A stretch of 64,000 bases of DNA from IMG/VR virus record IMGVR_UViG_3300027996_000011, positions 31,728 through 95,727 of that record; one strand, 5' to 3'. Below the pieces are notes generated by a model, which was given only the letters and a program-made list of their open reading frames with translations, was not told the origin of the DNA and did not search any database. Of the stretch, positions 33,866 to 58,367 are shown piece after piece. Position 1 is the stretch's first letter; every line of letters begins with the position of its first letter. Position numbers and translations under genes: made by a program. Origin of the DNA: a virus.

Positions 33866-35701
33866 TTAATCCTTTAATAATGTGTCAACCTCATCATTAA
33901 TACTATCAATATTATTTTTTGTTCTATTAAATAACTCATCTAAACCATCTTTAGATAACCCTCTACCTTCTAAAATTAAAGGTAGTTCAGAGTCAACATT
34001 AAAACCTTCAGCAGCCGCTACAGGGTCGGTTATCTCTTCACCAGCACCAGGAGCTTCAGTTTCTGAGTCACCCATATCAAAATTAGCGTCTTCTTCACTT
34101 CCCATATCTAATCCTGGTTCCTCACCTTCTGAATCAGTAGTATTTGTTACGGTCGGTGGTTCTCCATATAGTTTATCAACAGTATTAAATAACCCAGTCT
34201 TTTTAATTACATCACCCGTACTTTCTAATTCTGTAGATACTGCTTTTTCAAATCTTTGTTGTTGTAAGTCTAATTTAATTTCTTCATCACTCATACCTAA
34301 AATAAACTTTTTTGCCCATGTAGCTGAAACTGGTGCTATACCACTTCCTGGGTCACCCACAGCATCTTTATATAATGTTATTTTAGTTTGCCATTGTTCT
34401 AGTTTTAGTAGTTCTGATTGGGTTGATGGGTTAGTTAGACCTAAGGAAAAGTTTTCTAGTTCATCCTCGAACCCTAAAACATATAAATGAATTATAGCTA
34501 TTTTATTTAACTCTTGGATGATAGCTTTCTGAATCCTATTTATGGTTCTTGCGAATCTAATATCTAAAAGAGCTAGATTTTTACCTTCACCCACCACCTC
34601 CTCAAAACCTAAAAACGCTTTTGGTATTCTAAGAGAAGCTAGTAATTTTTTTTGTATATATTCTATATCTGCAATTTCACTTAAATTTGTTGCTCCAGGT
34701 AAAGTTTCTATAGGACTTGGAGCTGCTTGGTCTCTTACTGGTATAAAATAATCTTGGTCCACAGCCATTTGATTCATTCTTAAGTCCACATTTCCATTTT
34801 GTGGGTCTACTACTGGGTCCCTTTTAAACTTATTGGCTACTTTACCAATATAAGCTTCGACATCTTTGTCATCCATATTACCAACAAAGACTTTAAAAAC
34901 TCTTCTTTCTGGAGCTCTAGATGTTCTATATACTAACATAGCATCCTCAGCTAACAACAACTGTTTCCATATTCTTCTAGCTTTTTCCAACATAGAGGTA
35001 CCATAAGGTAATCTTCTATCATCACCTAAAAGTCTAAAATGTGCTATCTCCCAAGAATTAAATGTTAAGTCTTTTTCTCTCCATTTAAATTCTACTTGGT
35101 GAGCTTTGGCATCACTATTATCCATTTGGTTTAAGTAACTATGACCTTCTGTTCTTTCCATTTCAATATTAGGTAGCTGGTTGCACCCTATAACTCCTTT
35201 TTCTGGGTCAATTTTTAAATAAACAAAATTATCTCCGTATTTACAAGCATTACGAATCCACATGATTAAATTTGTGTCAACGTCTAATATGTTATTAAAT
35301 AAATCACCTAGAATTGACTTTATTCTAGTGGATTCAGACTGTATAGATAAAATGTAACCTTTTTCTGACGGGGTTGTGGATTCTTCTGCATATATATCCA
35401 AAGCAGCAGATATTTCCGGTGTAAACTCCATGGACTCATAGTCATAATAAGAAGCTAATCTAGTTGGTTCGTAATAAATAGATTTAGTATATAGTTCATT
35501 ATCTATTTTTTGCCATTGACTTGATAGGTACATGGATTGTTGCATTTGCAACTTCTTCTCCTCATAGTCTTTTTTAGAATCAGTTTTTAGTATTTCTTGT
35601 GAACCAAGTTTAAATTTTTGGAATGTTGGTTCTTGAGCTGTAGGTCCAGCAGGACCAAATAATTTTCCTAGTCTTTGATATATTGTTAAGTTTTCTGCCA
35701 T
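33866..35701 (-). CDS. Portal protein (T4 gp20-like)
   Basis: Y..M...PEI..A.D....E, LLAEDAMLVYRTSRAPERRVF...VGN, DYFIP.R, IETLPG..NL, DIEY..KKL. Confidence 0.95.
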   Translation of the reverse strand: MAENLTIYQRLGKLFGPAGPTAQEPTFQKFKLGSQEILKTDSKKDYEEKKLQMQQSMYLSSQWQKIDNELYTKSIYYEPTRLASYYDYESMEFTPEISAALDIYAEESTTPSEKGYILSIQSESTRIKSILGDLFNNILDVDTNLIMWIRNACKYGDNFVYLKIDPEKGVIGCNQLPNIEMERTEGHSYLNQMDNSDAKAHQVEFKWREKDLTFNSWEIAHFRLLGDDRRLPYGTSMLEKARRIWKQLLLAEDAMLVYRTSRAPERRVFKVFVGNMDDKDVEAYIGKVANKFKRDPVVDPQNGNVDLRMNQMAVDQDYFIPVRDQAAPSPIETLPGATNLSEIADIEYIQKKLLASLRIPKAFLGFEEVVGEGKNLALLDIRFARTINRIQKAIIQELNKIAIIHLYVLGFEDELENFSLGLTNPSTQSELLKLEQWQTKITLYKDAVGDPGSGIAPVSATWAKKFILGMSDEEIKLDLQQQRFEKAVSTELESTGDVIKKTGLFNTVDKLYGEPPTVTNTTDSEGEEPGLDMGSEEDANFDMGDSETEAPGAGEEITDPVAAAEGFNVDSELPLILEGRGLSKDGLDELFNRTKNNIDSINDEVDTLLKD

Positions 35702-35745: not shown

Positions 35746-37485
35746 CTATCGGATTTTACCGAATAGCCAAGCGTTCTGTTTATATTGTTCTTTAGTGTCT
35801 GAAGGTGTATTACCTGGTAATCCAAACATAGGTTTATTCTGTTGAGGTTTTCTATAGTCAGGTTCTTCGTTAGTAGAATTACTACTATTAATCCAACCGT
35901 CTAACATTGCTTTTGTCATACTGTCAGCTTTATGTAATTGACTAAAAGAGTTTTCACCAACATACAATGCCATGGCTATTGCCATAATTAAATCATCATG
36001 TTTACCTTTCATGTGATTTGGTTTTCCGTTTATATAGACAAATGTATACATCTCATTTAACAACCTTTTAGACCTTATTACAAATTTATGTCTAAGAGCC
36101 TCCTCAAAGGCTGCTATTATCTGAGTTCTTTTATTATTAAAGGCTAATCCAGGTGTTTTAGTACCTTCGTTTGGGTTATACTTCCATTTATCTGCCGTAT
36201 TCATACCCTCCACATATAAATCTTTATATCCTAATTCTTGTAATTTTCTAGATGTCGCTACACCCATACCCCCTGTTATATCAGTAACTACATAGGCATT
36301 ATACATACTTCCCCATTTATACACTATATCAGCGGCTAAATCTGGTGGAATTTTACCTAGATATTCAGCTACTTGACATCTAGAGTCAAAATCTATAATT
36401 ATTATAGATGTAAAATCTTCCGAATCACCCCTACTTACATCACACCCCAGAATATAACGATGACCCTCTATTGGCTTTTCCCAAATCCACATTTGGTTAC
36501 CCACAAACATTTCTTCAGGGTCCCTAATATCTTCATGTTTTATTTTTTCAATAGTTTCTACAGGTATAACGTTATCCCCCGAACCTAAAAAAGCACTTTC
36601 TAACTCTTGTGATATTTTTCTTCTATCATACTTAAGTTTTTTAACCATACTCTCAAACCAAGAAGAACAAGGTTTATAACCATCCCTAGATAATTCTTCA
36701 AATTTACTTAATTCTTTTTCATATAAAAACCCATCTTCATCATAATCCTCCCTATTTAATAAAAAATGTACAATATCTTTAGTCTTAACCCAAAAAATAT
36801 CTTTTGTAAATCTGGGGTCGTTTTGCCAATGAAGTTCTGAAATATGAAAACTATTTAAACCTTTTATAGATTGTTCGTATATTTCATAATAAATCTTATC
36901 GTACCCATTTGGTGTTGATATTACTATTACTTTACCTCCTGTAGATAATGATGCCATACATGCAGCCCAAAAATCGTCTCCCGCTTCTATGTATGCGGCC
37001 TCGTCAAATATTAATGTTGTTGGTGTAAACCCTCTAAGTGCATCTACGGAAGTAGCCACAGCTTTTACTTCACTACCATTATTTAATTTAAAATGCTTTT
37101 GTGAATCTTTTTCTTTTGAGAACCCAACGTTAATCCAATCAGGCCACTGATTTATAAAACCTCTAACTTTATTAGCGAATTCTGACGCGGTGTCCAGTTT
37201 GTTCGCAATTATAAGAATTTTTTCTGGTTTATTTTTAGAAGCGAATTGTAATTTTTTTGATACCCAAGCTGCAGTTGCTGTGGAAACACCCGCCTGTCTA
37301 TACTTTTTTGTGATGTTATCGTTATATACCTCAAAATTCCTTAACATCATCTTTTGTTCTGGAAACAAAATAAATGGTACGTACTTAGATTGGGTATTGT
37401 CGTAAGTTTCTAAATAGGTTTCAATAGCGTAATTTGTGTCTTGTAAGCACCTAGCATAGTCCTTTATTAAATCTTCTTTATTCAT
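35746..37485 (-). CDS. terL: Terminase large subunit (T4 gp17-like)
   Basis: KYRQAGVST (Walker A), IFDEAA (Walker B), ISTPNG, GCDVSRG..ED, HDDLIMA nuclease motifs. Confidence 0.95.
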   Translation of the reverse strand: MNKEDLIKDYARCLQDTNYAIETYLETYDNTQSKYVPFILFPEQKMMLRNFEVYNDNITKKYRQAGVSTATAAWVSKKLQFASKNKPEKILIIANKLDTASEFANKVRGFINQWPDWINVGFSKEKDSQKHFKLNNGSEVKAVATSVDALRGFTPTTLIFDEAAYIEAGDDFWAACMASLSTGGKVIVISTPNGYDKIYYEIYEQSIKGLNSFHISELHWQNDPRFTKDIFWVKTKDIVHFLLNREDYDEDGFLYEKELSKFEELSRDGYKPCSSWFESMVKKLKYDRRKISQELESAFLGSGDNVIPVETIEKIKHEDIRDPEEMFVGNQMWIWEKPIEGHRYILGCDVSRGDSEDFTSIIIIDFDSRCQVAEYLGKIPPDLAADIVYKWGSMYNAYVVTDITGGMGVATSRKLQELGYKDLYVEGMNTADKWKYNPNEGTKTPGLAFNNKRTQIIAAFEEALRHKFVIRSKRLLNEMYTFVYINGKPNHMKGKHDDLIMAIAMALYVGENSFSQLHKADSMTKAMLDGWINSSNSTNEEPDYRKPQQNKPMFGLPGNTPSDTKEQYKQNAWLFGKIR

Positions 37486-43329: not shown

Positions 43330-45195
43330 TTATTTAACTTCTTCGAACTCAACATCAGTAGTGTTTTCTCCCTCTGAAGGTGGTGGTGTCTCATCACCCC
43401 CACTTTCTTCATATAGTTGGGTTGATACTTCCTGCCATTTTTGGTTTATCTCCTCCATTGTAGTGTCTATAGACTCTAGATTTTTTTCTTCAATTGATTT
43501 TTTTAACCTACCTACAATCTCAGTCAATTTTTCTTTTGAGTCCTGGTCTAATTTATCTTCATACTCTTTTAATTGTTTTTCTGTTTGAAAAACCATCGAG
43601 TCTGCTTCATTTAACTTTTCCACCTCTTCTTTTTTCTTAGCGTCTTCTGATGCATTTACTTCTGCTTCTTTTTTCATTCTTTCAATTTCATCATCAGACA
43701 AACTACTACCAGACTCTATTTTAATATTATGTTCTTTTCCAGTACCTTTATCTAAAGCTTTAACATCAATAATCCCATTTGCATCAATATCAAACGTAAC
43801 CTCAATCTGAGGTATTCCTCTTGGTGATGGTGGGATATCTGTTAGTTGGAATCTGCCTAAGGTTCTATTATCTGGAGCCATTGGTCTTTCACCTTGTAAA
43901 ACATGGATGTCCACAGATGGTTGGTTATCTACAGCGGTAGAAAATATTTGGGATTTAGATGTTGGTATTGTGGTGTTAGATTCAATTAATGGTGTCATTA
44001 CCCCACCCATTGTTTCTATACCTAATGAAAGTGGTGTTACATCTAATAATAATACGTCTTTAACATCTCCAGCTAAAACACCACCTTGTATTGCGGCTCC
44101 CATAGCAACAACCTCATCTGGGTTAACTCCTTTTGATGGTTTTTTCTTAAATAGTTTTTCTACAGCTTCTTGTATTACTGGAATTCTTGTAGAACCACCA
44201 ACTAATAAAATTTCATCAATGTCTGTTACTTTTAATCCAGCATCTTTAATTGCTTTTCTACAAGGGGTAAGACTTTTTTTAACTAAATCCTCCACCATAG
44301 ACTCAAATTTAGCTTTAGATAATGTACGTACAAGGTGTTTTGGTCCTGTATTATCTGCGGTAATATAAGGTAGGTTTATTTCTGTTGTTGTTGAGTTAGA
44401 TAATTCTACTTTGGCTTTTTCTGCTGCTTCTCTTAGTCTTTGTAATGCGGAAGGGTCATTACTTAAGTCCATATTATTTTCTCCTTTAAACTCGTCTAGT
44501 AACCAGTCTATAATTTTTTCATCAAAATTATCACCACCAAGATGTGTGTCACCATTTGTTGACATAACCTCAAATATCCCATCACCAATTTCAAGAATAG
44601 AAATATCAAAGGTACCACCACCTAAATCATATACAGCAACCACTTTGTCTTCATTTTCATTCAACCCATAAGCTAGTGCCGCAGCTGTCGGTTCATTTAT
44701 AATTCTTAGTACTTTTAATCCAGCTATTTCTCCAGCTTCTTTTGTTGCATTTCTTTGTTCGTCATTAAAATAAGCTGGTACTGTAATTACAGCTTCAGTT
44801 ACTTTAGTACCTAAATAATCTTCAGCTGTTTTTTTCAAATTTTGTAAAACTACAGCTGAAATTTCTTGTGGTACATAGGACTTATCGTCTACTTTAATTG
44901 TAACAATGCCCTTACTACCTTTAACAACATCGTAAGACATTTTTTTAGCTTCTTTAGTTATTTCACTAAATTTACTACCTATAAATCTTTTTACCGAATA
45001 AATTGTATTTTTAGGGTTTGTAACACCTTGTCTTTTTGCTGGGTCACCAACAGACCTATCACCTTCTTTATACGATACTACAGAAGGGGTGGTTCTTTTA
45101 CCCTCTGAATTTACAATTATTACGGGTACACCCGCTTCAACCACCGAAACACACGAATTCGTTGTTCCTAAATCAATTCCAATTACTTTTGTCAT
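43330..45195 (-). CDS. dnaK: Hsp70 chaperone DnaK
   Basis: [54 protein letters not shown]. Confidence 0.99.
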
Positions 45196-45255
45196 TTTTA
45201 TTTAATTTTCTTTATTTTTATTTGTTTATGAAATTATTTTCATTAGTTTTGTAGT

Positions 45256-45270
45256 ACAATTACCGTACCA
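45256..45270 (-). promoter_or_regulatory. sigma54-like -24/-12 promoter for dnaK
   Basis: Minus strand TGGTACG-GTAA-TTGT versus consensus TGGCACG-N4-TTGC; exact GG-N10-G spacing. Confidence 0.55.
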
Positions 45271-45292
45271 AAAGTAATAAAGAATAATTCAA

Positions 45293-45327
45293 ATGTCAAA
45301 CCTGACATAATATATGTCACTTTGTCA
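45293..45327. promoter_or_regulatory. Cluster of four TGTCA/TGACA half-sites (putative regulator operator) between dnaK and clpC
   Basis: ATGTCA-AACC-TGACAT and TGACATA-ATA-TATGTCA palindromes plus a fourth TGTCA. Confidence 0.6.
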
Positions 45328-45374
45328 GTTGTTGATTATTATAAGAAATATGTTAACTTTAAATAAAAAATAAT

Positions 45375-47414
45375 ATGATAGATTTTAGTGCAGACTCAGA
45401 TATGGAAGAAATAAATAGTGGTGGTGAAAAACAAAAACCAAGTGTAGCGGATAGTGGTACACCAATTCTCGATAATTTTTCTCGTGATTTAACAGCTATA
45501 GCAGCTAGAGGTGAATTAGACCCAGTTATAGGTCGTGAAGATGAAGTTAAAAGAATAGTGCAAATTTTAGCTAGACGTAAGAAAAATAACCCAGTGTTAA
45601 TTGGTGAACCTGGAGCTGGAAAGACTTCAGTAGTGGAAATGTTGGCTACTATGATTCATCTTGGTAAATGTCCTAGAACGCTATTAAATAAAAGAATAGT
45701 ATTGTTGGAGTTATCCTCATTAGTTGCTGGTACTAAGTACCGAGGTCAATTTGAGGAAAGGATGAAAGCTATAATAGATGAATTAAGGGAAAATAAAGAA
45801 GTTATTATTTTTATAGATGAAATTCATACTGTGGTAGGTACTGGAAATTCTTCTGGTAATTTAGATGCTGCAAATATATTTAAACCGCCTTTAGCTAGAG
45901 GTGAAGTACAATGTATAGGGGCAACTACTATGGATGAGTATAGAGAAAAAATTGAAAAAGACGGTGCATTAGAGAGAAGATTTCAAAAAGTAACTATTGA
46001 CCCACCTTCTTTGTTTGATACCGTAAAAATTCTAAAAAATATAAAACATGTTTATGAGGAACACCATAATGTTAGTTATAGTAATGAAGTGGTTGAGTTA
46101 TGTGTTAAATTGGCTGACAGATATATAAGTGACAGGGCTTTTCCTGATAAAGCAATAGATGTACTTGATGAGGTTGGGTCCATGGTTCAGATAGAGGTTA
46201 AAACACCAAAAACGTTGGAAAAATTAAAAGGTGAGATTGATAATCTTAAATTAGAAAAGATTGAGGTTGTGAAGTCTCAAATGTATGAAAAAGCCGCTGA
46301 TTTAAGAGATGGTGAAAGAAAATTAACTGAGAAGTTACGTAAATTAACAACTGATTGGGAAGAAAAGCAATCCCTAAATAAGATAGATATTACTATTGAA
46401 AACGTTATGGATGTTGTATCTAAAATAACTAGGATACCTTTAAGTAGGATGAATAGAAATGAGAAAAAAAATCTTTTAAATCTAGATGGTCAATTAAAGA
46501 AAGAAGTTATAGGGCAAGATGAAGCTATAAACACTATTGTAAAAGCTGTAAGACGTAACTCTATAGGGATAAAAGAATTGGATAAACCAATAGGTTCCTT
46601 TATCTGTCTGGGACCTACTGGTGTTGGTAAAACTCATTTAGCTAAAAAATTATCTGAATTACTTTTTGGTAGTGAGGAGTCTTTAATAAGGGTAGACATG
46701 TCTGAGTACCAAGAAAAACACTCAGTTTCTAGACTAATAGGTTCACCTCCAGGATATGTTGGGTACAATGAAGGTGGTCAGTTTACTGAAAAAGTAAGAC
46801 AGAAGCCATATTCTTTAATACTCTTTGATGAGATAGAGAAAGGTCATAGGGATATTTTTAATATTCTTTTACAGATTTTAGATGATGGTTATGTAACAGA
46901 TGCTGCGGGTAGAAAAATTAATTTTAGAAATACTTTAATTATGATGACTTCTAATATTGGTGTTAAAAACTCCCAGGATTTTAGTAGAGGTCTAGGGTTT
47001 ACTACTAAATCATCCGAACAAACAGATAAAGAAAGAATTAGAAGTATTATATCAAAATCACTTAAAAATACATTTAATCCTGAATTTTTAAATCGTTTAG
47101 ATGATGTAATTATGTTCGAAACTTTGGATAGGTCTAGTGTGAAGAAAATAGTTAAAATAGAGTTGTCTTTTTTAACTTCTAGATTACTGGAAAAAAACTA
47201 TAGTATTAAATTTAGTCCTAGTGTTATTGACCATATTTGCGAGGTAGGTTATGACGAAAAGTTTGGTGCTAGACCACTAAAAAGAGCCATCCAATCAGAA
47301 GTTGAGGACTATATTTCATCTCAGATACTAAAAGATGGTATTATAGAAGGTAACAAATACAACTTAAGTTATTCTAAAAAATCTAATAAGTTTAAAATTG
47401 TCGACAAAGGTTAG
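45375..47414 (+). CDS. clpC: ClpC-type Hsp100 ATPase lacking the N-terminal Clp-repeat domain
   Basis: Two AAA modules (GEPGAGKT, GPTGVGKT), UVR-type M domain (YEKAADLRD), RGLGF ClpP-docking loop; only about 28 aa before TPILDNF. Confidence 0.9.
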   Translation: MIDFSADSDMEEINSGGEKQKPSVADSGTPILDNFSRDLTAIAARGELDPVIGREDEVKRIVQILARRKKNNPVLIGEPGAGKTSVVEMLATMIHLGKCPRTLLNKRIVLLELSSLVAGTKYRGQFEERMKAIIDELRENKEVIIFIDEIHTVVGTGNSSGNLDAANIFKPPLARGEVQCIGATTMDEYREKIEKDGALERRFQKVTIDPPSLFDTVKILKNIKHVYEEHHNVSYSNEVVELCVKLADRYISDRAFPDKAIDVLDEVGSMVQIEVKTPKTLEKLKGEIDNLKLEKIEVVKSQMYEKAADLRDGERKLTEKLRKLTTDWEEKQSLNKIDITIENVMDVVSKITRIPLSRMNRNEKKNLLNLDGQLKKEVIGQDEAINTIVKAVRRNSIGIKELDKPIGSFICLGPTGVGKTHLAKKLSELLFGSEESLIRVDMSEYQEKHSVSRLIGSPPGYVGYNEGGQFTEKVRQKPYSLILFDEIEKGHRDIFNILLQILDDGYVTDAAGRKINFRNTLIMMTSNIGVKNSQDFSRGLGFTTKSSEQTDKERIRSIISKSLKNTFNPEFLNRLDDVIMFETLDRSSVKKIVKIELSFLTSRLLEKNYSIKFSPSVIDHICEVGYDEKFGARPLKRAIQSEVEDYISSQILKDGIIEGNKYNLSYSKKSNKFKIVDKG

Positions 47415-47422
47415 TAATATGA

Positions 47423-47430
47423 TATTTATA
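47423..47430 (+). promoter_or_regulatory. Putative late promoter TATTTATA
   Basis: GATATTTATAGGTG-ATG. Confidence 0.65.
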
Positions 47431-47434
47431 GGTG

Positions 47435-48535
47435 ATGAAATTAATAATAACACAAAAACAGTCTAGGCGACTAATCAAAGAAGCTTTAGGTGTGCCTAAA
47501 TCTATTGAGTTTTGGGTTGACACGTTTTCTGAAGTTATTAATGATGGTTTAATGATGTTATTATCTTCTGATGATAAAGAAGTTTTTTTTACTGGAAATG
47601 ACATACAAGAAAAAGCTGTTTCTGGTGGCTGGAATAGTTCTAATGACAAATTTTTAGATTTTCCATTAGCAGAACCACAATTAAACCTAAAGTTAAATAT
47701 TGTACCTGATGAAAGTATAAATAGTGGTGATGATTATATTGATGCAGCTTCTTTTGATACTAGTGGAATTGATTTAATTGATGCTACTTTTGATGATGGT
47801 AAAACTTTACCTTTGGTAGTTGGTGGGATTATAAATATAGAAATTAATGTCCCCGAATCTTCATATGAAAATGGTTCATTTGTAGAACTTTATAATTCTG
47901 AAATAAAACCATATGCTGAATCTATTTTGTTTCATGAACTAACTCATGTTTATGAATTTTATAAAAGAATACTGAGTAATTCGGCAAAACCTAACTTTGA
48001 ACAGGTTGCTAATCTGACCCAGATGATGAATAAAATGGGTTCGGTTGATGATTGGGATGAGTTAATGTTTATGATTTATTTACATTTGAGTTTTGAACTT
48101 AATGCTAGAATATCTGAAGTTTATGGTTTATTAAGAAATAAAAATATTAGCTCTAAAGAAGAGTTTATAGAATTTTTAAAGACTTCTAGAGCTTTTTCTT
48201 ACGCTAAAAGACTTAATAACTTTAGTGCTGAAAAGTTTTTCGAAGATTTTGAGCTTTCTCAAGAAACAATAGATAGAGTTAGAGAGTACGATGGTAAAAA
48301 AACACCAATAGATGAAATAAAGAATGTGGTATTAGACCAACTAATTCAGAACTGGTCGGTAACATATGAAGATTTCTTAAAAGATTTTTCTGCTGATGAA
48401 ACTATAAAAATACCTAACTTACCTAGTAAAGTATTATCCTCACCACAAAACTTTCTTAAATTCTGGGAAAAACGCTTTAATAAAGCGGGACAAGATTCTT
48501 TAAGAAAAATTTCACGTTTATATTCGGCCATTTAA
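47435..48535 (+). CDS. Zincin-motif protein with KLIITQKQSRRLIKE leader
   Basis: HELTH plus downstream ELNAR; late motif upstream. Confidence 0.65.
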   Translation: MKLIITQKQSRRLIKEALGVPKSIEFWVDTFSEVINDGLMMLLSSDDKEVFFTGNDIQEKAVSGGWNSSNDKFLDFPLAEPQLNLKLNIVPDESINSGDDYIDAASFDTSGIDLIDATFDDGKTLPLVVGGIINIEINVPESSYENGSFVELYNSEIKPYAESILFHELTHVYEFYKRILSNSAKPNFEQVANLTQMMNKMGSVDDWDELMFMIYLHLSFELNARISEVYGLLRNKNISSKEEFIEFLKTSRAFSYAKRLNNFSAEKFFEDFELSQETIDRVREYDGKKTPIDEIKNVVLDQLIQNWSVTYEDFLKDFSADETIKIPNLPSKVLSSPQNFLKFWEKRFNKAGQDSLRKISRLYSAI

Positions 48536-48546
48536 TATTTTTTTCT

Positions 48547-48554
48547 TATCTTTG
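48547..48554 (+). promoter_or_regulatory. Bacteroidota housekeeping-sigma -7 element
   Basis: TATCTTTG, 4 nt before ATG48559. Confidence 0.6.
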
Positions 48555-48558
48555 TAGT

Positions 48559-49059
48559 ATGAATTTAGAAAGAACAAGAAATATTGCAATTGACTTAATG
48601 AGACAACATGGTCTAACTGGTTACACTTTTAAGTGGGACAAAGCTGTTAGAAGATTTGGTTCTTGTAATGGTAGAACTAAAACCATAACTCTTTCTAGAC
48701 CAATGACTCAACACGAAACTAACGAAAAAAGAGTTATAAACACAATTCTTCACGAAATCGCTCACGGACTAGATTATAAAAATAGAGGGTACTCTAATCA
48801 CGACTCTCAATGGAAAAGAGTGGCTAGGTCTATCGGTTGTAGTGGTGAAAGATGTAGTAGTGGTTCTGGTGTTGACAAATCTAAATTTATGAAGTGGGTA
48901 GCTACCTGTCCTAATTGTGAAAAAGACGTTTATTACGCAAGAAAAACAAAAGTAGATAAAGCATGTGGTGTGTGTTGTAAAAAACACAACAATAACAAGT
49001 ACACATCAGAATATAAGTTTAACTGGGAATTAAATCCTAAAGTTGTAAAATATAAATAA
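48559..49059 (+). CDS. SprT-like Zn metalloprotease with Zn ribbon
   Basis: R.FG.C, TILHEIAH, H...WK, CPNC/CGVC. Confidence 0.9.
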   Translation: MNLERTRNIAIDLMRQHGLTGYTFKWDKAVRRFGSCNGRTKTITLSRPMTQHETNEKRVINTILHEIAHGLDYKNRGYSNHDSQWKRVARSIGCSGERCSSGSGVDKSKFMKWVATCPNCEKDVYYARKTKVDKACGVCCKKHNNNKYTSEYKFNWELNPKVVKYK

Positions 49060-49589
49060 TGGAAAAATTAGAATATAAAATAAAAAATGGACCAAGGGTA
49101 GAATCTGTAAATGAATTTACCCTTAGTGATGACACTAAAGTAGCGATGTTTCAGGGATTTAGAGGTTCTTACCCCGAATTAGACTTTATTGTGAAATATA
49201 AGGAGCCAACGAATAGATTGAGGACCCCTTCTCACACACATTGGATTGTAGACCTATTAGTTAAAGCAGAATTTAACAAGGAGATGGTTAGAGACTTTGT
49301 ACAGAAGTATTTGGATTTATATGACGTTATGACCCCTTTTGAGACTCAGGAGGAACGCAATAACTACCAACTACAACACATAGGAGGGTCTCTAACAGAC
49401 TTTCAAGGTATAGATGGTTGTGGGTATCTAAGTGTGGAGTTTCTCTCTAGTATCTTAGAATTATTCATTTTATGTGAAAAAAGGTCTGATGATGCGTTTA
49501 TGTTTAAAGGTTTATTACAATTAGTAATTGACTTCTGTGATGGTAAAAGAGATTACTATCAAGTGGTGGGTTACTCTAAAAGAGTTTAA
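49059..49589 (+). CDS. Hypothetical protein
   Basis: 176 aa, coupled to SprT gene; RTPSHTHWIVD motif. Confidence 0.75.
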   Translation: MEKLEYKIKNGPRVESVNEFTLSDDTKVAMFQGFRGSYPELDFIVKYKEPTNRLRTPSHTHWIVDLLVKAEFNKEMVRDFVQKYLDLYDVMTPFETQEERNNYQLQHIGGSLTDFQGIDGCGYLSVEFLSSILELFILCEKRSDDAFMFKGLLQLVIDFCDGKRDYYQVVGYSKRV

Positions 49590-49590
49590 T

Positions 49591-50397
49591 ATGAAAGAAA
49601 AATTAAAAGAATTGTTATCGATACCAACTAAGACTTGGGAAGAGGAAAGATTAATAAATTATCTTATGTCACATTTTGAAGAAATGGGATATGATTATGA
49701 AAAAGATGATTTGGGAAATTTGTATGTAACTAAAGGAGTTTCTGACTACTACCCTTTGGTCCTAGCTCACACAGATAGTGTTCATGATATTGTGGAGATG
49801 GAAGTTAGAGAAGAGTATTTACCTAATTCCCAGGGGGAAAGTAAATTAGCTCTAAAGGCTTATACAAAAGAAGATGGGACACCTACAGGGATAGGTGGTG
49901 ATGACAAAGCTGGGGTTTTTATATGCTTACAACTGTTGGAAAAATTCGATGTGATTAAAGCATTTTTCCCGGTTGCTGAAGAAACTGGGTGTCATGGAAG
50001 TAGGGGTGCTAAAGAGGAATTTTTTAAGGATGTTGGCTACGCCATACAATTTGACTCTACAGAAAATGATACGATGTCACTTTCTTTAATGGGAGTGAGG
50101 TTGTTTGAACAAAAATCCGAGTTCTTTAGTAAGACTCGTAATATAATTTTAGAGCATGGCTTTACTGAGTGGAGACATCACCCATATACCGACACTATGA
50201 TTCTTAAAGATAAATTTAATTTTGCTTGTTTAAACTTTGCTGCTGGATATTACAATTATCACACTTCTAATGAGTATGTTATTGTTGAGGATGTGAAAAA
50301 TTCTATAAAATTAGGTGAAAATGTTATAAGTAAGTTAGGTAACTCTTTTTATGAATTTAAGTCCAAGCAGAAAGAGTCTGATTTTTGGTTCGATTAG
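49591..50397 (+). CDS. M20/M28-family Zn peptidase-like hydrolase
   Basis: AHTDSVH, GGDDKAG, EETG, QFD, YH; start ATG49591. Confidence 0.85.
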   Translation: MKEKLKELLSIPTKTWEEERLINYLMSHFEEMGYDYEKDDLGNLYVTKGVSDYYPLVLAHTDSVHDIVEMEVREEYLPNSQGESKLALKAYTKEDGTPTGIGGDDKAGVFICLQLLEKFDVIKAFFPVAEETGCHGSRGAKEEFFKDVGYAIQFDSTENDTMSLSLMGVRLFEQKSEFFSKTRNIILEHGFTEWRHHPYTDTMILKDKFNFACLNFAAGYYNYHTSNEYVIVEDVKNSIKLGENVISKLGNSFYEFKSKQKESDFWFD

Positions 50398-51109: not shown

Positions 51110-51295
51110 ATGCCAAAATCAAGAAATAGAAAAAATCACAAGAAAAAAGTGTCTGCACGTAAACTTAGGGTAGAGTCCCAACAAAAACAGATGATTAAAC
51201 AGTTAGAGGAAATAAAAACTAAGTACGCGGAAGAACAACAATCAAAAGAATCGGAATCTACTGGTGAGGTACCTTTTACTTTAGATAAAAAATAA
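51110..51295 (+). CDS. Small protein with very basic N-terminus, abutting tmRNA
   Basis: MPKSRNRKNHKKKVSARKLR...; stop codon 3 nt before tmRNA 5' end. Confidence 0.7.
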   Translation: MPKSRNRKNHKKKVSARKLRVESQQKQMIKQLEEIKTKYAEEQQSKESESTGEVPFTLDKK

Positions 51296-51298
51296 TAT

Positions 51299-51707
51299 GG
51301 GGGTGACTGGAATTGATTGGCATCCGTCGATTAGTGTCAGCACGTCGAGCCTGAGTTAAGCTCGTAAAATCTGATTCATTTTTTTAACTGGCAAAACAAT
51401 TGCTAAGTTGGCAACTCTAGGACTTGTCCGTGAAACGTCAACAGTGGCTGTAGCGTAACTAAGTTACGATATAGCTCCACTCCTTCTAAAGAATTTAAGA
51501 TTTGTGTCTTTAGTTTTTGGAGTGTCAAATAGACAAATCGAACCCGGCAATAATTGTTCCGTCGGAAAGTTGGAGAACAATTGCGAAGGTCCCCAAGGTT
51601 GTTTATTCTATAAGGGCATTCAAAGACAAAGGAATAAACTAAACGTGTAGGATAGACGTTAGTAGAAGATGAACAAGACGGGGGTTCGATACCCCCCACC
51701 TCCACCA
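51299..51707 (+). ncRNA. ssrA: tmRNA (409 nt); encoded tag GKTIAKLATLGLVRETSTVAVA* at 51390-51458
   Basis: Acceptor stem GGGGGTG/CACCTCC with G3:U70, ACCA end, T arm GGGGG-TTCGATA-CCCCC, UAACU resume context before GGC. Confidence 0.95.
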
Positions 51708-51712
51708 AAAAG

Positions 51713-51737
51713 AAAAGGACCACTAGGTCCTTTTTTT
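51713..51737. terminator. Bidirectional intrinsic terminator
   Basis: AAAA-GGACC-ACTA-GGTCC-T7 between tmRNA and the convergent operon. Confidence 0.85.
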
Positions 51738-53118
51738 ATTTTAATATTTTTTCCAAACCTATTGGTTTATTTTCCAATACTTTAGATAAACCAAGTTCAC
51801 TTTCTAATTTTAAATTACCGTTACGGTCAATTATTATATCATCTTCTTTACCATCTTCACTTAACTTACCATTAATATAACTATTAAATTTAACAATTAT
51901 ATTTTCTGGTACTTTGTGTTCTGTACCACTTTCTTCATCCAACTCATCAAACATTAGTTGTTTTAATCTAATTTGTAAAATTTCTCCACTTTCCCAAGCT
52001 TGTAACCCCCCAAAATTAGAAATACAATTAGTTCCGTTTTTTTGTGTTATATCAAATTGTCCGAGAGGTGTTGATTTACTGTCTCCTTCATATATAGTTA
52101 ATTCTCTAGGTATTGAGGTTCCTTTCATACAGTGACGACTTAACATTAAGACTAAAGCGTTATTTAAATCACTTCTTAAATTATCTACTCGTTCAAAAAA
52201 TTCATTATTGTAAAAACCTGGTGCGTTAGTGATAGGTGGGTACGACCCTGTTATTGGACTGTTTTCTATTTTTTCTCTAATTCTTTTTAGCGTGTTTTTT
52301 CTTGGTGCTTTTATAGTGTGAATACCAGAATCAAGTGTTTTACCTGGACCAGCAAACACATAAGTATTTTCTAACACTATTGTTTCTTCATAAGTACAAC
52401 CAGTGTGTATGTATGTAACACCATCAATATCTACTCTAGTAGAAATTCCAGTAAAATCAGAATCGTCTAATCCTTCTGGACATGTATTCGTTTTACACCA
52501 GTAAGATGGACTAGTACTATCAAAACAACCATAAATCTTACCAACTGTTGGAGTTGTGTCTATTACCGATTCGTCTTCACTTTCGTCTTTTTCGTATTTT
52601 GGTTTAAATTTATCACATATTTGTTTCCAATACTTTAATGCTGTTTTTGGTTTAAGTGAATTTTCGTTTTTTGCATAATTTAATAGTGTTGCTTTTACGT
52701 GACAAATATATTCGAGAGTTTCTGCTTCCTTACCAGTTAAAGGTTTATAGTTGTCCTTTTCTTTATCACTTAGAGAGTCCAACGGTTCTTTCGTGGTATC
52801 CACATCAAATAATACATCCTTAAGAAGGATTCTTTTTAACTCATCTTCTAAGTTTATAAGGTTACCCCCTTTTTTCATGTAAATGTCAGCAAAAGGTAAA
52901 TTATCAGAAGATTTAGTACCATCTTCGTTTTTTAATGCATAGAACATATTATCTTCTATTCTATCACTACACGTTATACATTTTTGACTTTCTGTAAGAC
53001 TTACATTAAATTGGGTTAGTACGGTTTGTACTTCTGAACTTTGCGTCTGTTTTTCTAGATACTCTTTAATCTTATCTAGATTTTGTTCTAAAATTATACT
53101 TAACCCTTCCTTTTTCAT
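51736..53118 (-). CDS. Hypothetical protein (460 aa), putative head-packaged
   Basis: GLSIILEQ N-terminus and GLSKVLEN C-terminus; IYGCFD...GCTY Cys module. Confidence 0.65.
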   Translation of the reverse strand: MKKEGLSIILEQNLDKIKEYLEKQTQSSEVQTVLTQFNVSLTESQKCITCSDRIEDNMFYALKNEDGTKSSDNLPFADIYMKKGGNLINLEDELKRILLKDVLFDVDTTKEPLDSLSDKEKDNYKPLTGKEAETLEYICHVKATLLNYAKNENSLKPKTALKYWKQICDKFKPKYEKDESEDESVIDTTPTVGKIYGCFDSTSPSYWCKTNTCPEGLDDSDFTGISTRVDIDGVTYIHTGCTYEETIVLENTYVFAGPGKTLDSGIHTIKAPRKNTLKRIREKIENSPITGSYPPITNAPGFYNNEFFERVDNLRSDLNNALVLMLSRHCMKGTSIPRELTIYEGDSKSTPLGQFDITQKNGTNCISNFGGLQAWESGEILQIRLKQLMFDELDEESGTEHKVPENIIVKFNSYINGKLSEDGKEDDIIIDRNGNLKLESELGLSKVLENKPIGLEKILK

Positions 53119-55229
53119 TATTGTCCTGGTCTTAATTTACAATTATCATCACCTCCACCAGCGGCCGCAGCAGTATCGTATATTTTCTTTAAATTATCAA
53201 AACCATCTTTTCCTTTACAATACTCAACAAAATCTGAATTAGTTTTTACGCCCGCATTGTTTAATGCTATCCCAACATCCTTACTTACAAGTGTACCACC
53301 TATCTTACAACCACCATCATTACAATTACAATCATCACTACCAGATTTACAACCAGTACCACATTTTGCTAAAGGAATAGTTACTTCAAAATCACCATCA
53401 TCATATTTTATACTTTGTGGGTACTTTAATAGATACTTCTTATTTTCTTCTACTATTTCCATCCATGTATCATAATTTACGTCTGACGTGTCTGGGTCTA
53501 AATAAGGAAGTTTATTTATTTTTGTTTTAATGTCATCCCAGGTTGCTCCTTTGAATAGAGCAGCCCACTGATTCATATTTTGCATGTCATCGTATAAACT
53601 AGCGTTAAAGTTAGTTTCGTAGTAATCGGAAATTTGTGACATTTTTAAGATATCGGTTGCGTCTTTGTCCAGTATATTTTCTACAACCTCCTCGTCTGGT
53701 CTAAAAGTACCAGCCATATCCAAAATTACTTTGGTTATAGAGGGGACACCTAGTTCAAATTTATATTCACCAACAGTGTAATCTACTTCGTCATCACCTA
53801 AAATTGTCCACCAATTACCACCCGCGGCATTATTATTTAGTGTTGCGTATAAAGCTTCAGCTAACATTTTTACAGTATTTTCATCTTGTATAGAATACCT
53901 TTTTAAAAATGCTCTACTAAATTCTACATCATTACAGGTTACAACTGTGCTTGATTTATCAGCTTCTTGTGGAGTCCCGATTACATTTCTATATAATTTA
54001 CCTGTTAATGCATCACTAACCTTATCTGTACCCACACAATTTGAGAATGACTCAATAACTGATTTAAACCATTGCACCGGTGACAGTTGTGCTATATCTT
54101 TATCCCTTATACTACGATAGGTACCAAATATCCCCACCCCTATCATTAGAGCATAGGCTGAATCCCATACTTTATCTTTTGTTTTAATATTTCTGTTAAA
54201 TATTTTCGTAACATAGTTATACAAACCTTTTAAGACTGCACCTCCCATAACATAGTTATAGAATCCGGAAAGTAGTATTTCACCAGTTATTACTTTAAAC
54301 CACTGCTTATTTCCTACTACATTACCATACTTAATATTTCTAAACACTTTCATTGGGTCTACCGCTTTAGTTAAAAAACTAAAGTATTTTTCTAATGATT
54401 CACCTTCTTTACTTAGTAGTATACCTAAGTCATTTATTAACCTACTAGTTTTTTCCAACCCTAGAGTGTCTGCTACAGTTTCTATTAACTCATCGATTGT
54501 ATCTTTGTATTGAGCATATTTAACTCTTTTTGTAAAATCTGAACTAGACATTAAAGCTTTTTTTATAATTTTGGTAAATTGTGGGTTTGCTCCCATTAAA
54601 GCTATTATTGCTTTTTTAAGTCCGTCTGTTAACGGACCTCCTTTTAAGAAGGATTGTAGACTTCTCATAAATTCTTCTACAGTACTTATGGAACCATTTG
54701 TTACCTGCTTAAAGTATGATTCTAGTTCGTTAGTTGGTAGTCTTAGAAATGGTGGTATGGAGTAATATTCAGTATTATTCTCCACAATCTCTCTGTAAGT
54801 TTTTTCGTCTATTAATTGGTCTGGCTGGTTTGGAACTACTCGGTAGTAGTCCGTTTCTATTGCAATTTTTTCTCCCTGTTTGGTTGCTATCGTGGCTGAG
54901 TCCTTACCAAGTTCCTCACCTAACTCATTAAAATATCTAGTTATTGTCTTAATTTCAGTTCCTTTTTGTATTATCTCATTCCATTCGTCTTTACCCTTAG
55001 CAAAAATAATCAAGTCATCAAATTTGTTTAAGAAACTAGGTATCACACCATCAGTTTCAAAACCTAAATCATCCATGATTTTTACTAGTCCTTGTGGTGT
55101 TATAGCATCATCTAAAACTTTATTAATAATTTTAGCCTCAACTTGTTCCGATAATATATTACTAGAACTATTAACCATTATTTGGTTGATTCTATATAAC
55201 TCTTCGTTTAATGTTTTTTTACCTCGCAT
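53118..55229 (-). CDS. Large protein with leader type B, hydrophobic segments and Cys-rich C-terminus
   Basis: LNEELYRINQIM...ILSEQ; ALMIGVGIFG; CGTGCKSGSDDCNCNDGGC. Confidence 0.65.
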   Translation of the reverse strand: MRGKKTLNEELYRINQIMVNSSSNILSEQVEAKIINKVLDDAITPQGLVKIMDDLGFETDGVIPSFLNKFDDLIIFAKGKDEWNEIIQKGTEIKTITRYFNELGEELGKDSATIATKQGEKIAIETDYYRVVPNQPDQLIDEKTYREIVENNTEYYSIPPFLRLPTNELESYFKQVTNGSISTVEEFMRSLQSFLKGGPLTDGLKKAIIALMGANPQFTKIIKKALMSSSDFTKRVKYAQYKDTIDELIETVADTLGLEKTSRLINDLGILLSKEGESLEKYFSFLTKAVDPMKVFRNIKYGNVVGNKQWFKVITGEILLSGFYNYVMGGAVLKGLYNYVTKIFNRNIKTKDKVWDSAYALMIGVGIFGTYRSIRDKDIAQLSPVQWFKSVIESFSNCVGTDKVSDALTGKLYRNVIGTPQEADKSSTVVTCNDVEFSRAFLKRYSIQDENTVKMLAEALYATLNNNAAGGNWWTILGDDEVDYTVGEYKFELGVPSITKVILDMAGTFRPDEEVVENILDKDATDILKMSQISDYYETNFNASLYDDMQNMNQWAALFKGATWDDIKTKINKLPYLDPDTSDVNYDTWMEIVEENKKYLLKYPQSIKYDDGDFEVTIPLAKCGTGCKSGSDDCNCNDGGCKIGGTLVSKDVGIALNNAGVKTNSDFVEYCKGKDGFDNLKKIYDTAAAAGGGDDNCKLRPGQ

Positions 55230-57672
55230 ACTTCAGTTTTAATTGTTCTTCTCTTTGATTAATTTCTTCTTTCTTATTTATAAATACTTGGTCAGTATCC
55301 ATTAATAAATCTATCATCGTATCTAAATCATCCTCGTTACCACTATAAATACCTTTTAGTATTTTTTCAAGTTCTATTTCTCCTTTTTCTAAGTCATTGT
55401 CACCAAGTGTGAACAACCAATATTCCAATATTTCTTCATCTTCTGCATGGGCTTCTATTGTAGCTCTCCATAAACCATTAATATTATCAGTATAAGCGTT
55501 ATTTATTTCTTCAACAATTTCATTCACCTCTACTATTGAGAGGTCCTCACCCTCAACATTTACGGTAATTTCAGTACCATCATCAGATACGGTTACATCA
55601 CCATCAATTTCTTGGTTTAATATATCCTCTAATTCTCGTACTTCATCTAGGTTTTTACTCATAAAATTCTTTTGTAGGACAGCAAATAAAGTACATGTAG
55701 CACTTTCACCTATTTGTTCGGAGTCCAACTTAATTTTTATTGTTTTTAGTCCCACTATAGGTGCAGTATTTGATGCGACTGCAAGTGTGTCCAATAACAC
55801 ATTTTTACCATTTATATTTAAAGTTAAATCGAAACAACTTACTGTGTTTTTTATAGCAACACCCGCTAAAGTCGCTAAAATCATTTTAAATGGTACACCT
55901 AAATTATATTTCATTTTACCAACAAAACTTCTCCAAGCTTTTCTATTTGCAAATAATACTGATGACAGTTCATCTGCCCCTTTACTAAACTCAGTATAAG
56001 GTAAATTTTGTGTAGATTTTTTAAATGCTGGATTAAGTCTTCTTAAAGCATGAAATTCAACAACGTCTAGTGTTGAGAATCTTTTTAGAAAATCTATACT
56101 GGTTTTAGTATCTATATCCAACAATTTCATCATTTCCTCTTTGTTTTCTTTTAAAGCCTTAAACACTACCTGGCCATTTTTACCATATTTCGCAACCATC
56201 GATTTTTTACCATTTTCTAAACCATATGTTAAAATTTTAGCTAATTTTTTATCACTAATTTTAGCCACTTTAATAATATTTGATAGTTTTAGTACTTTTA
56301 AGAATGGTATAGTTTCTAATGCTATACCTAACACACCCCAGGCTGTTTGTCCTTGATGTAAGTCAAAAGCACCACTTGCTACACCCATTCCTGTAGATAA
56401 AGCTATTAGTGCAACCCCAACCGGTGCACCAACACCTGTAGCGGTAAGTACGAAACCTACGACTACCATCGCAACTGAAACCATATCCCACCAAAATTGA
56501 ATTTCGTCTTCTTCTTCTATTGTCATTTCTCTTTGTTCGAACTCACTTTCTGTTTTATCCATCCAGTCACTTTTTTCCTTTTCACTCATCGAGTCCCAAT
56601 TTTCTGGTCTTTCCTCGATAAACGCAAATACATCTCCAAATTTTTCCCTAATGTCTACCTCTTCATTTGATAGGGATTTTTTTCCAACACCAAACCCACA
56701 ATTTGTTTGTAGTAACATCTCAGCAAAATTTCTCATATCTTTAAAATAACGTCTATGTTGTTCTTCGTTAAGTGGGTAAGATTCAGATTCTTCTTTTTTA
56801 CCTCCAACCATATAAGCCCACTGTCCTGAGTTATAATCTTTTTCTTGGTTGTTAGTTCTATTCTTTATATAATTGGATACTAACTTTAGTACGTCATAAT
56901 CGTTAGAATCGGATAATTTTTTTTGTAATGCTTGTAATGTTTGTTCTTTACCACTATACCAATCTTTTTTATTAACACCTAAATCTTTTCCTGTTTTTGT
57001 GGAATAAGCTTTTTGTAGGTACATTAGGACTTTTGGTTTTACATTTTCTGGTATTTCAGCATCACCCACCAGATAAGGTCTACAAAAATATTTTGTATTC
57101 ATTTTTTCTCCACCCTCAAAAGCAAAAAGTGAGGGTATAACAACTTGACTGTCATCAACCTCAAACCCTGACATTTCATGTGTACCATCTAAAGCTAAAC
57201 CTGTTTTACAATTTATTTTTTTACCTGTTTGTCGATTAAAACAAACCTCTACTTCACCCAACATTACTGTTTTAATACCTGGTATGTACTGGTATAGTGC
57301 TTGTCCTTCAGCAATAGCATTATTTCTAAAAAAACCTTCTTTAGCGTTAAAGGGGTATAGATAACCTTGTAAATATATTTTAACTCTGGATGGTAATTTT
57401 TCATAGGTTGTATGAGGAATAACCGAAAATGGTTGTATGCCTAACTTTGTCAAAGCATTTTTAACCCCACTATCTAAATTTTGCCAAGCTTTCATAGCTT
57501 CTTCTTTAGTTCCACCATAACTTTTGATTGGTTCACTGGCTTTTACCGTAAGGTAAGAAAATTGAGGTTCTGTTTGTTCTTTTATTCTTTGAGCACGAAA
57601 TTCCATAATAGTTTCAGCTATAAACTTTACCATTTCGTGATGTGGTAATTGTATTTTTTTCTTTTTTACCAT
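55219..57672 (-). CDS. Large protein with membrane-inserting hydrophobic hairpin (putative ejection/channel protein)
   Basis: WWDMVSVAMVVVGFVLTATGVGAPVGVALIALSTGMGVASG...GVLGIALETIPFLK; no signal peptide. Confidence 0.6.
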   Translation of the reverse strand: MVKKKKIQLPHHEMVKFIAETIMEFRAQRIKEQTEPQFSYLTVKASEPIKSYGGTKEEAMKAWQNLDSGVKNALTKLGIQPFSVIPHTTYEKLPSRVKIYLQGYLYPFNAKEGFFRNNAIAEGQALYQYIPGIKTVMLGEVEVCFNRQTGKKINCKTGLALDGTHEMSGFEVDDSQVVIPSLFAFEGGEKMNTKYFCRPYLVGDAEIPENVKPKVLMYLQKAYSTKTGKDLGVNKKDWYSGKEQTLQALQKKLSDSNDYDVLKLVSNYIKNRTNNQEKDYNSGQWAYMVGGKKEESESYPLNEEQHRRYFKDMRNFAEMLLQTNCGFGVGKKSLSNEEVDIREKFGDVFAFIEERPENWDSMSEKEKSDWMDKTESEFEQREMTIEEEDEIQFWWDMVSVAMVVVGFVLTATGVGAPVGVALIALSTGMGVASGAFDLHQGQTAWGVLGIALETIPFLKVLKLSNIIKVAKISDKKLAKILTYGLENGKKSMVAKYGKNGQVVFKALKENKEEMMKLLDIDTKTSIDFLKRFSTLDVVEFHALRRLNPAFKKSTQNLPYTEFSKGADELSSVLFANRKAWRSFVGKMKYNLGVPFKMILATLAGVAIKNTVSCFDLTLNINGKNVLLDTLAVASNTAPIVGLKTIKIKLDSEQIGESATCTLFAVLQKNFMSKNLDEVRELEDILNQEIDGDVTVSDDGTEITVNVEGEDLSIVEVNEIVEEINNAYTDNINGLWRATIEAHAEDEEILEYWLFTLGDNDLEKGEIELEKILKGIYSGNEDDLDTMIDLLMDTDQVFINKKEEINQREEQLKLKYAR

Positions 57673-58367
57673 AGTGGGTTTCCTTTTCCTCTTGTTGTTT
57701 GGTAAGAGTCACCCCATTTAGTATTTGCTACTTGGTTGGCTACTCCTCTGGCTATACCAGAATCCCAAACACCAACTGAAGCTGTACCAGCACCAGCACC
57801 ATCATCTGACTCACCACTCTCAGTCCCTTCCTGTTCACCCAGTTCATACCCTAATTCCATATTATATTCATCAGAAGAGTCCATATAACTATCTTCAGGA
57901 CCATCACTATTAAAATTATAACCTTTTTTAATTTTAGAGTAGTTAGTTGGGGCTTCTTCAAAACCTTCACCATCTAATTCGGGTTGTGAACCTAAGGCTC
58001 CTTTACTATTAAAATCGTAACTTGACACGTCATCTGTGTCTGGGTATCCACCCTGTAGTCCAGACATGATATCCTCCTCAATAGTACCACCACAAGACAT
58101 TTGTTTTTCTTCTACTTCATCATAATCAAAAGAATTTACAACACTATCTATGTTGTCAGCCATTTGGGCGATTTTAGATTCCATCCAGTCATCTAATTCT
58201 TCACCTTTATCTAACCTATCATACATACTCTGAGATTTTTTAGCTATATTGTAAAGCTGACTTTTAGCCATATATGACTTTTGGTGGTTACCTTCTTTTA
58301 ATGGTTCTTTCTGTGAAATACCCATTATTTCTTTTACACGATTTATTTGTTCTTGTATTTTTGGCAT
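57666..58367 (-). CDS. Acidic head-associated-type protein with leader type B
   Basis: IQEQINRVKEIMG; MAKSQL...L..WMESKI module seen in T4-like phage hypothetical proteins; late motif upstream. Confidence 0.65.
   Translation of the reverse strand: MPKIQEQINRVKEIMGISQKEPLKEGNHQKSYMAKSQLYNIAKKSQSMYDRLDKGEELDDWMESKIAQMADNIDSVVNSFDYDEVEEKQMSCGGTIEEDIMSGLQGGYPDTDDVSSYDFNSKGALGSQPELDGEGFEEAPTNYSKIKKGYNFNSDGPEDSYMDSSDEYNMELGYELGEQEGTESGESDDGAGAGTASVGVWDSGIARGVANQVANTKWGDSYQTTRGKGNPLW

Follow-up and report, generated by a model that had tools for sequence, protein, structure and literature searches.

The window, a 64,000-nucleotide stretch of viral DNA (bases 31728-95727 of an IMG/VR virus record that measures 95,727 bp and has an estimated CheckV completeness of 30%), encodes a tmRNA that, judging from comparison with its relatives, is very probably a functional and expressed phage tmRNA with a conserved tag of 22 codons. 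The source of this DNA is a fragment of a roughly 300-kb jumbo phage. It carries the following phage genes:

28453-30249: major head protein
33866-35701: portal
35746-37485: large terminase

IMG/VR contains more than 598 relatives of the capsid protein, with identities of 64-76%, among them a protein from a 296,330-bp genome rated 100% complete (G005). Among phage records, the nearest capsids are those of an uncultured 484-kb phage (45%), Microcystis phage Mel-JY01 (43%), and Flavobacterium phage 'immuto' (42%). Capsid, portal, and terminase, together with the complete 296-kb relative, rule out a bacterial contig misfiled as viral. Flavobacteriaceae (Bacteroidota) are the likely hosts. This assignment draws mainly on the phage-encoded DnaK, which is 64-69% identical to DnaK from Flavobacteriaceae/Bacteroidota (the other matches found were less similar), and in addition on the distant match to the Flavobacterium phage capsid; the GC content of ~31% agrees with it.

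The original prediction placed a phage tmRNA at positions 51299-51707 on the plus strand. ARAGORN finds a full-length, one-piece tmRNA (ssrA) with exactly this span, and Rfam model RF00023 returns the same coordinates with a score of 108.2 bits (E 2.4e-41; gathering score 47), aligning over model positions 1-374 of 374. The elements of the gene and its 3′ border are as follows:

51299-51305, plus strand: 5′ strand of the acceptor stem, GGGGGUG, including G3 of the G3:U70 pair (from the sequence)
51385-51389, plus strand: frame-setting pentanucleotide UAACU, with the A at −4 of the resume codon at 51386 (from the clade comparison)
51390-51455, plus strand: tag frame of 22 sense codons, GKTIAKLATLGLVRETSTVAVA, starting with GGC and followed by TAA at 51456-51458
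51408-51431, plus strand: conserved core of the tag, L-A-T-L-G-L-V-R, corresponding to [LM]-x-x-[LV]-G-L-[VILT] in the clade, usually then R
51456-51458, plus strand: tag stop codon UAA, in the apical part of helix 5 (from the Rfam alignment)
51677-51707, plus strand: T-arm, 3′ acceptor strand, discriminator A, and encoded CCA (from the Rfam alignment, posterior '*' throughout)
51697-51703, plus strand: 3′ strand of the acceptor stem, CACCUCC, the partner of GGGGGUG (from the sequence)
51710-51737, both strands: hairpin of 12 pairs with a T-run, directly 3′ of the CCA end (from a terminator scan)

As predicted, the tRNA-like domain reads as complete, comprising an acceptor stem with the G3:U70 pair (the identity mark for alanine), the T-arm (GGGGGUUCGAUACCCCC), and an encoded ACCA end. 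All 10 tmRNAs compared possess the G3:U pair, and pairs 4-7 of the acceptor stem show compensatory changes, as exemplified by the stem GGGUCCG/CGGAUCC of one relative (L085). The Rfam alignment also spans the regions of pseudoknots PK1-PK4, where the middle has low posterior probability and the MAFFT alignment is poor. The segment 51380-51485 folds with a z-score of −2.9. The hairpin and U-tract at 51710-51737 are likely a bidirectional terminator.

Two further features were seen at the ends of these genes. The tmRNA genes of four relatives (L085, L090, L127, and L128) end in ACAA and that of L089 in ACCG, instead of ACCA, so that repair by a CCA-adding enzyme would be needed in these five members of the clade. 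On the 5′ side of the tmRNA in the window, an ORF for a very basic 61-amino acid protein (MPKSRNRKNHKKK...) occupies 51110-51295, and only 3 nt separate its end from the tmRNA. Counterparts with 49-56% identity occur in the five nearest relatives, and none was detected in more distant members. The transcript of this ORF may be the precursor from which the tmRNA is processed.

The tag frame was defined by comparison of 15 tmRNA genes with 13 distinct tag regions, namely the tmRNA of the window and 14 from related phage contigs. Nine of the 14 were retrieved with RF00023 from 20 longer records of the capsid clade, nine of which thus contain a full-length tmRNA; the other five came from loci anchored on the neighboring Clp ATPase. 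In each of the 15 genes, a G[GA][CA] codon stands in this register, and the frame that it opens comprises 21-22 codons before a stop. The consensus resume codon of the Rfam alignment falls on GGC 51390, and tmRNAs from Flavobacteriaceae/Bacteroidota exhibit the same resume context (UAAAU followed by GGC GAA...). Clade register, Rfam alignment, and Bacteroidota context therefore all support the predicted 22-codon frame that opens with GGC after UAACU. The A at −4 of the resume codon is invariant in the clade (15/15), which fits the U85-A86 rule of Escherichia coli, where A86 sets the frame four nucleotides downstream (PMC2481249).

The tag region evolves as a coding sequence in this frame. Over 14 gapless codons, the first, second, and third codon positions have mean column entropies of 0.90, 0.47, and 1.10 bits, respectively, and the excess of position 3 over position 2 has a permutation p of 0.00035. 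Pooled Nei-Gojobori pN/pS amounts to 0.58 in the tag frame versus 0.76 and 1.47 in the other two frames, a contrast kept modest by the shortness and saturation of the region; codon-position entropy is the clearer test. The 22-codon tag is thus established by comparison across the clade. The same comparative criterion was used by Hudson, Lau and Williams for the Carsonella tag (PMC4131195).

Two other readings of the tag region were considered. ARAGORN itself starts the tag later in the same frame, at GCT 51402, which would leave 18 codons (AKLATLGLVRETSTVAVA). In its favor, this codon too is preceded by an A at −4 in the window, and GCN is the commonest resume codon. However, relatives carry GAT, AAC, TCA, or AGT (Asp, Asn, or Ser) at this position, and both the Rfam alignment and the Bacteroidota tmRNAs put the resume codon at GGC. 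Moreover, the four preceding codons, which ARAGORN omits, exhibit the same codon-position periodicity as the rest of the tag (0.70/0.42/1.14 bits). Based on the comparison with relatives we rejected the late start, which we regard as highly improbable. The second reading, the +1 frame AKQLLSWQL, was already judged the poorer candidate in the original prediction and is ruled out, as it is not kept in relatives, which give ATY, AMC, or ETF before a stop. ARAGORN missed five of the nine clade tmRNAs detected with Rfam (L082-L090, 66-120 bits) and placed the tag start too late in those that it did find; surveys with ARAGORN alone would thus under-count such tmRNA genes.

The tags of the relatives, all in the same register, are exemplified by GDVLDTMATLGLIREESTVAVA; GNVLNKMETLGLVRGSEVTVA; GNTFAKMAALGLTREASVVAA; and GETIAKLQAVGLLRTEEVTVA, and further tags of the clade are DNTLSKMALLGLIVEEAVVEA; GNVLNKMALVGLVRQDELVNVA; and GNVYSEMAVLGLVSDNVAVNA. 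The 15 genes share the pattern G-x-x-[ILFY]-x-[KTE]-[LM]-x-x-[LV]-G-L-[VILT]-(R)-...-A, with the stop codon after the alanine. Within the core, Gly-Leu is invariant as a peptide while its codons vary (GGA, GGG, GGT, or GGC for this Gly; CTT or TTA for this Leu). Across the tag, conserved Leu residues are encoded by CTT, TTA, CTA, or CTC and Arg by CGT, AGA, or CGC. The last residue is alanine in all 15 tags. The two residues before it vary, with the endings AVA (the window), AIA, TVA, VAA, VEA, NVA, and VNA. As shown by this comparison of sequences, selection acts on the tag peptide and not on the RNA across the clade, and it is therefore plausible that the middle motif has a specific reader.

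The tag of the window contains neither Asn nor Tyr; the NY motif is thus missing, as the original prediction had stated, and the N-terminal part that binds SspB (AANDENY-like) is absent. Compared with the features of a Mycoplasma-type, Lon-directed tag, the length of 22 codons fits, aromatic residues are absent, and the candidate hosts carry Clp ATPases. The tag had also been called unusually long. It is indeed long with 22 codons, but not unprecedented, since tags measure 27 residues in Mycoplasma pneumoniae, where the tag is read by Lon, 14 in Bacillus subtilis, and 11 in E. coli (PMC8403727). The description of its middle segment as amphipathic fared poorly. The core contains the invariant glycine, and the best helical hydrophobic moment falls outside it, in the less conserved N-terminal part; an amphipathic helix was therefore rejected as the conserved feature. 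A site of the T4 type for prohead protease or capsid targeting, (I/L/V)-x-E (LVRE in the window), was likewise rejected: the pattern occurs in only 8 of 15 tags and hence is not the conserved tag feature.

The phage tag is, by sequence comparison within Bacteroidota, unrelated to the 9-residue tags of the probable hosts. Four of five Flavobacteriaceae/Bacteroidota genomes yielded tags with ARAGORN, namely GENNYALAA (twice), GESNYALAA, and GENKFALAA, which bears out the claim that the phage tag is unlike the GE.NYALAA type. When the phage tmRNA was compared with 401 Bacteroidota genomes by blastn, a single match of 31 nt was returned, at the 3′ end and in one genome only, and a captured host ssrA was rejected on this basis. 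The same search against 50,697 phage records gave no match.

The tmRNA was also found in marine RNA. The 3.7 kb around the gene are present almost whole in 14 seawater or marine metagenome runs, and ~5-7% of the words sampled from the same 3.7 kb occur in six marine metatranscriptomes. In four libraries from four studies, RNA contigs lie on 51307-51707, while 3.3 kb of flanks are almost empty. These contigs include one of 363 nt and one of 212 nt, both with 0 mismatches, and in the contigs of two runs an adapter follows directly after 51707, the CCA end. Variants within the tag are mostly synonymous or conservative (GCA to GCG, CTA to TTA, GAA to GAG, Ile to Leu, and Thr to Ser). The cover of the tmRNA next to near-empty flanks within RNA libraries argues for accumulated RNA, with the flanks serving as an internal contrast and not as proof of silence. 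Accumulation of the tmRNA as a stable RNA in the sea is thus strongly supported; the contigs give neither levels nor proven ends. In four runs, the RNA contigs have a common start at 51307, which lies 8 nt into the gene, behind the GGGGGUGA run, and in one run an adapter lies directly before 51307. This start could be an artefact of G-run trimming or reverse transcription rather than a true end.

Upstream of the tmRNA, the window encodes a cluster of proteostasis genes (43330-50397) in the order DnaK, ClpC, a 367-amino acid protein, SprT-like protease, a 176-amino acid protein, and M20/PepT-like peptidase. Its assigned members are:

43330-45195, minus strand: DnaK (Hsp70; Pfam HSP70, E 1.5e-257; NCBIfam DnaK)
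45375-47414, plus strand: ClpC-type double AAA+ unfoldase that lacks the N-terminal domain (by comparison with Staphylococcus aureus ClpC, 6em8)
48559-49059, plus strand: homologue of SprT-like zinc metalloproteases (Pfam PF10263, E 4e-13)
49528-50397, plus strand: short homologue of M20/PepT-like peptidases, a weak match (NCBIfam aa-his-dipept, 3e-9; PepT-like, 6e-9)

The best solved relative of the phage ClpC is S. aureus ClpC (PDB code 6em8), to which it aligns over residues 155-807 (E 2e-220). The protein comprises two AAA+ modules and a UVR-type motif at residues 287-317 that corresponds to a short M-domain. In the ClpP-docking LGF loop, GLGF of the phage protein lies over AGF of 6em8. 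The retained docking loop suggests that the phage ClpC is a protease partner and not a ClpB-type disaggregase. The Clp_N domain, the site for adaptors and phospho-arginine, is absent, as the phage protein begins at the equivalent of ClpC residue ~150. Accordingly short frames (675-696 amino acids) are found in all clade members, whereas ClpC of Flavobacteriaceae, which is 52-55% identical, comprises 846-875 amino acids.

All 10 tmRNA-bearing records compared have the short ClpC upstream of the tmRNA, on the same strand and at a distance of 2.4-4.9 kb, although the intervening genes turn over. Two further contigs (L129 and L130, ClpC 57% identical) showed no tmRNA within 7 kb downstream. A conserved order of ClpC and tmRNA can be inherited without functional coupling. 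The M20/PepT-like gene lies near the tmRNA even in the distant clade members L082, L085, L086, and L089. SmpB and ClpP are absent from the 95.7-kb record, which represents ~30% of the genome. The complete relative G005 encodes both ClpP and an SmpB of 136 amino acids with a basic C-terminal tail; ClpP is also found in a second relative (G006), and in a third (G013) SmpB lies within 1 kb of the tmRNA. DnaK is absent from G005.

The surroundings vary in other respects as well. In G005 (C1:149248-152885, L099/L100), ClpC seems to be split, as the part for residues 16-81 lies ~1.7 kb ahead of the remaining gene. This arrangement points to an insertion, for instance of an intron or a homing endonuclease gene. 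Downstream of ClpC, one relative (L126:8385-11671) has at least 17 tRNA genes in an array, and several others keep tRNA-Ile(UAU), tRNA-Leu(UAA), and tRNA-Arg(UCU) there. Directly downstream of the tmRNA in the window, an operon of four genes (460, 703, 817, and 233 amino acids) occupies 51736-58367 on the minus strand. The proteins tested from it had no Pfam or PHROG match. The operon is weakly kept in near relatives and has no counterpart in G005, and a search for relatives of the phage by way of the 460-amino acid gene found none.

From these features, we propose the following mechanism. Host alanyl-tRNA synthetase would charge the phage tmRNA by means of the conserved identity elements G3:U70 and ACCA. 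The charged tmRNA would then enter stalled ribosomes together with SmpB; at least two relatives encode this protein themselves, and otherwise it would come from the host, whose SmpB is presumably available. Translation would resume at GGC 51390 and proceed for 22 codons to UAA 51456, so that stalled chains would receive (A)GKTIAKLATLGLVRETSTVAVA, that is, 23 residues including the alanine of the charged tmRNA. The tag itself would act as a two-part degradation signal, composed of a nonpolar C terminus and a clade-specific internal motif with a dedicated reader. The invariant terminal alanine and the nonpolar end suggest a degron, and conservation of [LM]xx[LV]GL[VILT](R) inside the tag points to a second site of recognition. 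The original prediction had rescued proteins routed to a different protease, adaptor, or fate, which is a plausible hypothesis.

Among single candidates for this reader, we tentatively favor the phage ClpC without N-terminal domain, acting with ClpP that is encoded by the phage (as in relatives) or by the host. It is a candidate on account of its linkage to the tmRNA in 10 of 10 records, its docking loop, and the behavior of truncated ClpA, which, like other Clp ATPases without an N-terminal domain, still threads ssrA-tagged substrates through its pore. Extended to all steps, this would give a private circuit that leads from the phage tmRNA (with its own SmpB in some members) via the clade-specific degron to the phage ClpC-ClpP, independent of the host's GENNYALAA/ClpXP route. 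We put this circuit forward tentatively and regard it in its entirety as somewhat unlikely. If it exists, the phage could, during infection and under its own control, clear ribosomes and reuse truncated proteins, most of them from the host.

About as likely as a reading by the phage ClpC-ClpP is one by host ClpXP, Lon, or FtsH. The tag might then be an ordinary ssrA-type degron handled wholly by host proteases (ClpXP, Lon, FtsH, or Tsp), with the long middle part acting as a binding site for a host adaptor or as a hydrophobic patch of the Lon type and the phage ClpC serving general proteostasis unrelated to the tag. A private reader is not required, since a C-terminal x-A end is compatible with ordinary recognition by host ClpXP. 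All 15 tags end in alanine after nonpolar residues, like canonical tags, and genomes of the host lineage possess their own ClpC, ClpB, and a ClpX-like match. There is also a precedent in the long hydrophobic Mycoplasma tag that is read by Lon (PMC8403727), although the phage tag differs from it by having no aromatic residues. On the other hand, the host's own tag has 9 residues and ends in YALAA, and reading by host ClpXP offers no obvious reason why a different peptide of 21-22 residues should be retained throughout the depth of the clade. The linkage with ClpC in 10/10 records likewise speaks against host proteases as the sole readers.

It is unlikely that the tag is no degradation signal at all and that the phage tmRNA mainly frees ribosomes. 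In this case the peptide could be captured by DnaK through its Lys-hydrophobic core-Arg arrangement, be sequestered, or protect the tagged protein from host ClpXP/SspB. The Leu-rich hydrophobic core between Lys and Arg, which we take to resemble the general DnaK binding pattern, would agree with such a fate, as would the phage DnaK encoded 6 kb upstream. However, G005 keeps the tag without a DnaK, and the invariant terminal alanine with its nonpolar end looks like a degron. The remaining weight falls on other possibilities.

Hardly credible is a decoy or leftover, that is, a host ssrA captured from an integration site, or a tRNA-like domain competitor that ties up SmpB and inhibits trans-translation in the host while tagging nothing productively. 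The frequent integration of prophages at ssrA is a point in its favor. A phage tmRNA that consists of the tRNA-like domain only (DS6A) has been proposed to inhibit tmRNA (PMC4131195), but here the gene is full-length, selection on the peptide conserves its reading frame, SmpB is encoded by relatives themselves, and the 401 Bacteroidota genomes gave nothing beyond the one 3′-terminal match of 31 nt.

Proposed roles for phage tmRNAs are keeping ribosomes free, recycling host proteins, and sensing the state of the host (PMC9004378, PMC7162821). The present case offers an unusually clean handle on this question, as it combines a clade-specific tag, RNA in ocean metatranscriptomes, and an adjacent candidate unfoldase. 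If the phage ClpC-ClpP reads the tag, the two would form a natural orthogonal pair of degron and protease and possibly a tool for protein degradation in Bacteroidota. If host proteases read it, the tag would be an ordinary, well-documented addition to the diversity of tmRNA tags.

The phage gene shares with ssrA of Bacteroidota and the RF00023 family the tRNA-like domain, the G3:U70 pair, the CCA end, the GGC resume codon after a UAA-type context with an A at −4, the stop codon in helix 5, and a length near 400 nt. In contrast to ssrA of Bacteroidota, it is phage-encoded, its tag comprises 22 codons instead of 9 and lacks N-Y-A-L-A-A, and outside the 3′ end there is no detectable nucleotide similarity. 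The ssrA tag of E. coli, AANDENYALAA, is bipartite, with an SspB site and a ClpX site. The phage tag may share this two-part logic in the form of an internal motif and a nonpolar C terminus, with no relation in sequence.

With the tag of Mycoplasma, which co-evolved with a particular protease (PMC8403727), the phage tag has its length and an internal hydrophobic part in common. However, it lacks aromatic residues and any sequence similarity to the Mycoplasma tag, its candidate reader is the phage-encoded ClpC-ClpP, and the probable host is not a minimal bacterium without ClpXP.

Phage tmRNAs and long tags are already known. A tmRNA was found in 402 of 18,146 phage genomes, reported as 2.3%, and OM43/SAR11 phages possess a two-piece tmRNA (PMC9004378), in contrast to the one-piece tmRNA described here. 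Huge phages can carry tmRNA together with SmpB (PMC7162821), Bacillus phage G combines a tmRNA with the tag AKLNITNNELQVA with ClpP and ClpX (PMC12484599), and mycobacteriophages of the Bxz1 group also carry tmRNA (PMC4131195). The present gene has in common with these a phage-borne ssrA that is sometimes accompanied by genes for SmpB and Clp proteases, but it belongs to another phage clade (42-45% capsid identity to the nearest phage records) and its tag to another family. Compared with the phage tmRNA papers cited here, the new elements are a tag conserved across a whole clade, its contrast to the host-type tag, and the constant pairing of the tmRNA with a ClpC that lacks the N-terminal domain.
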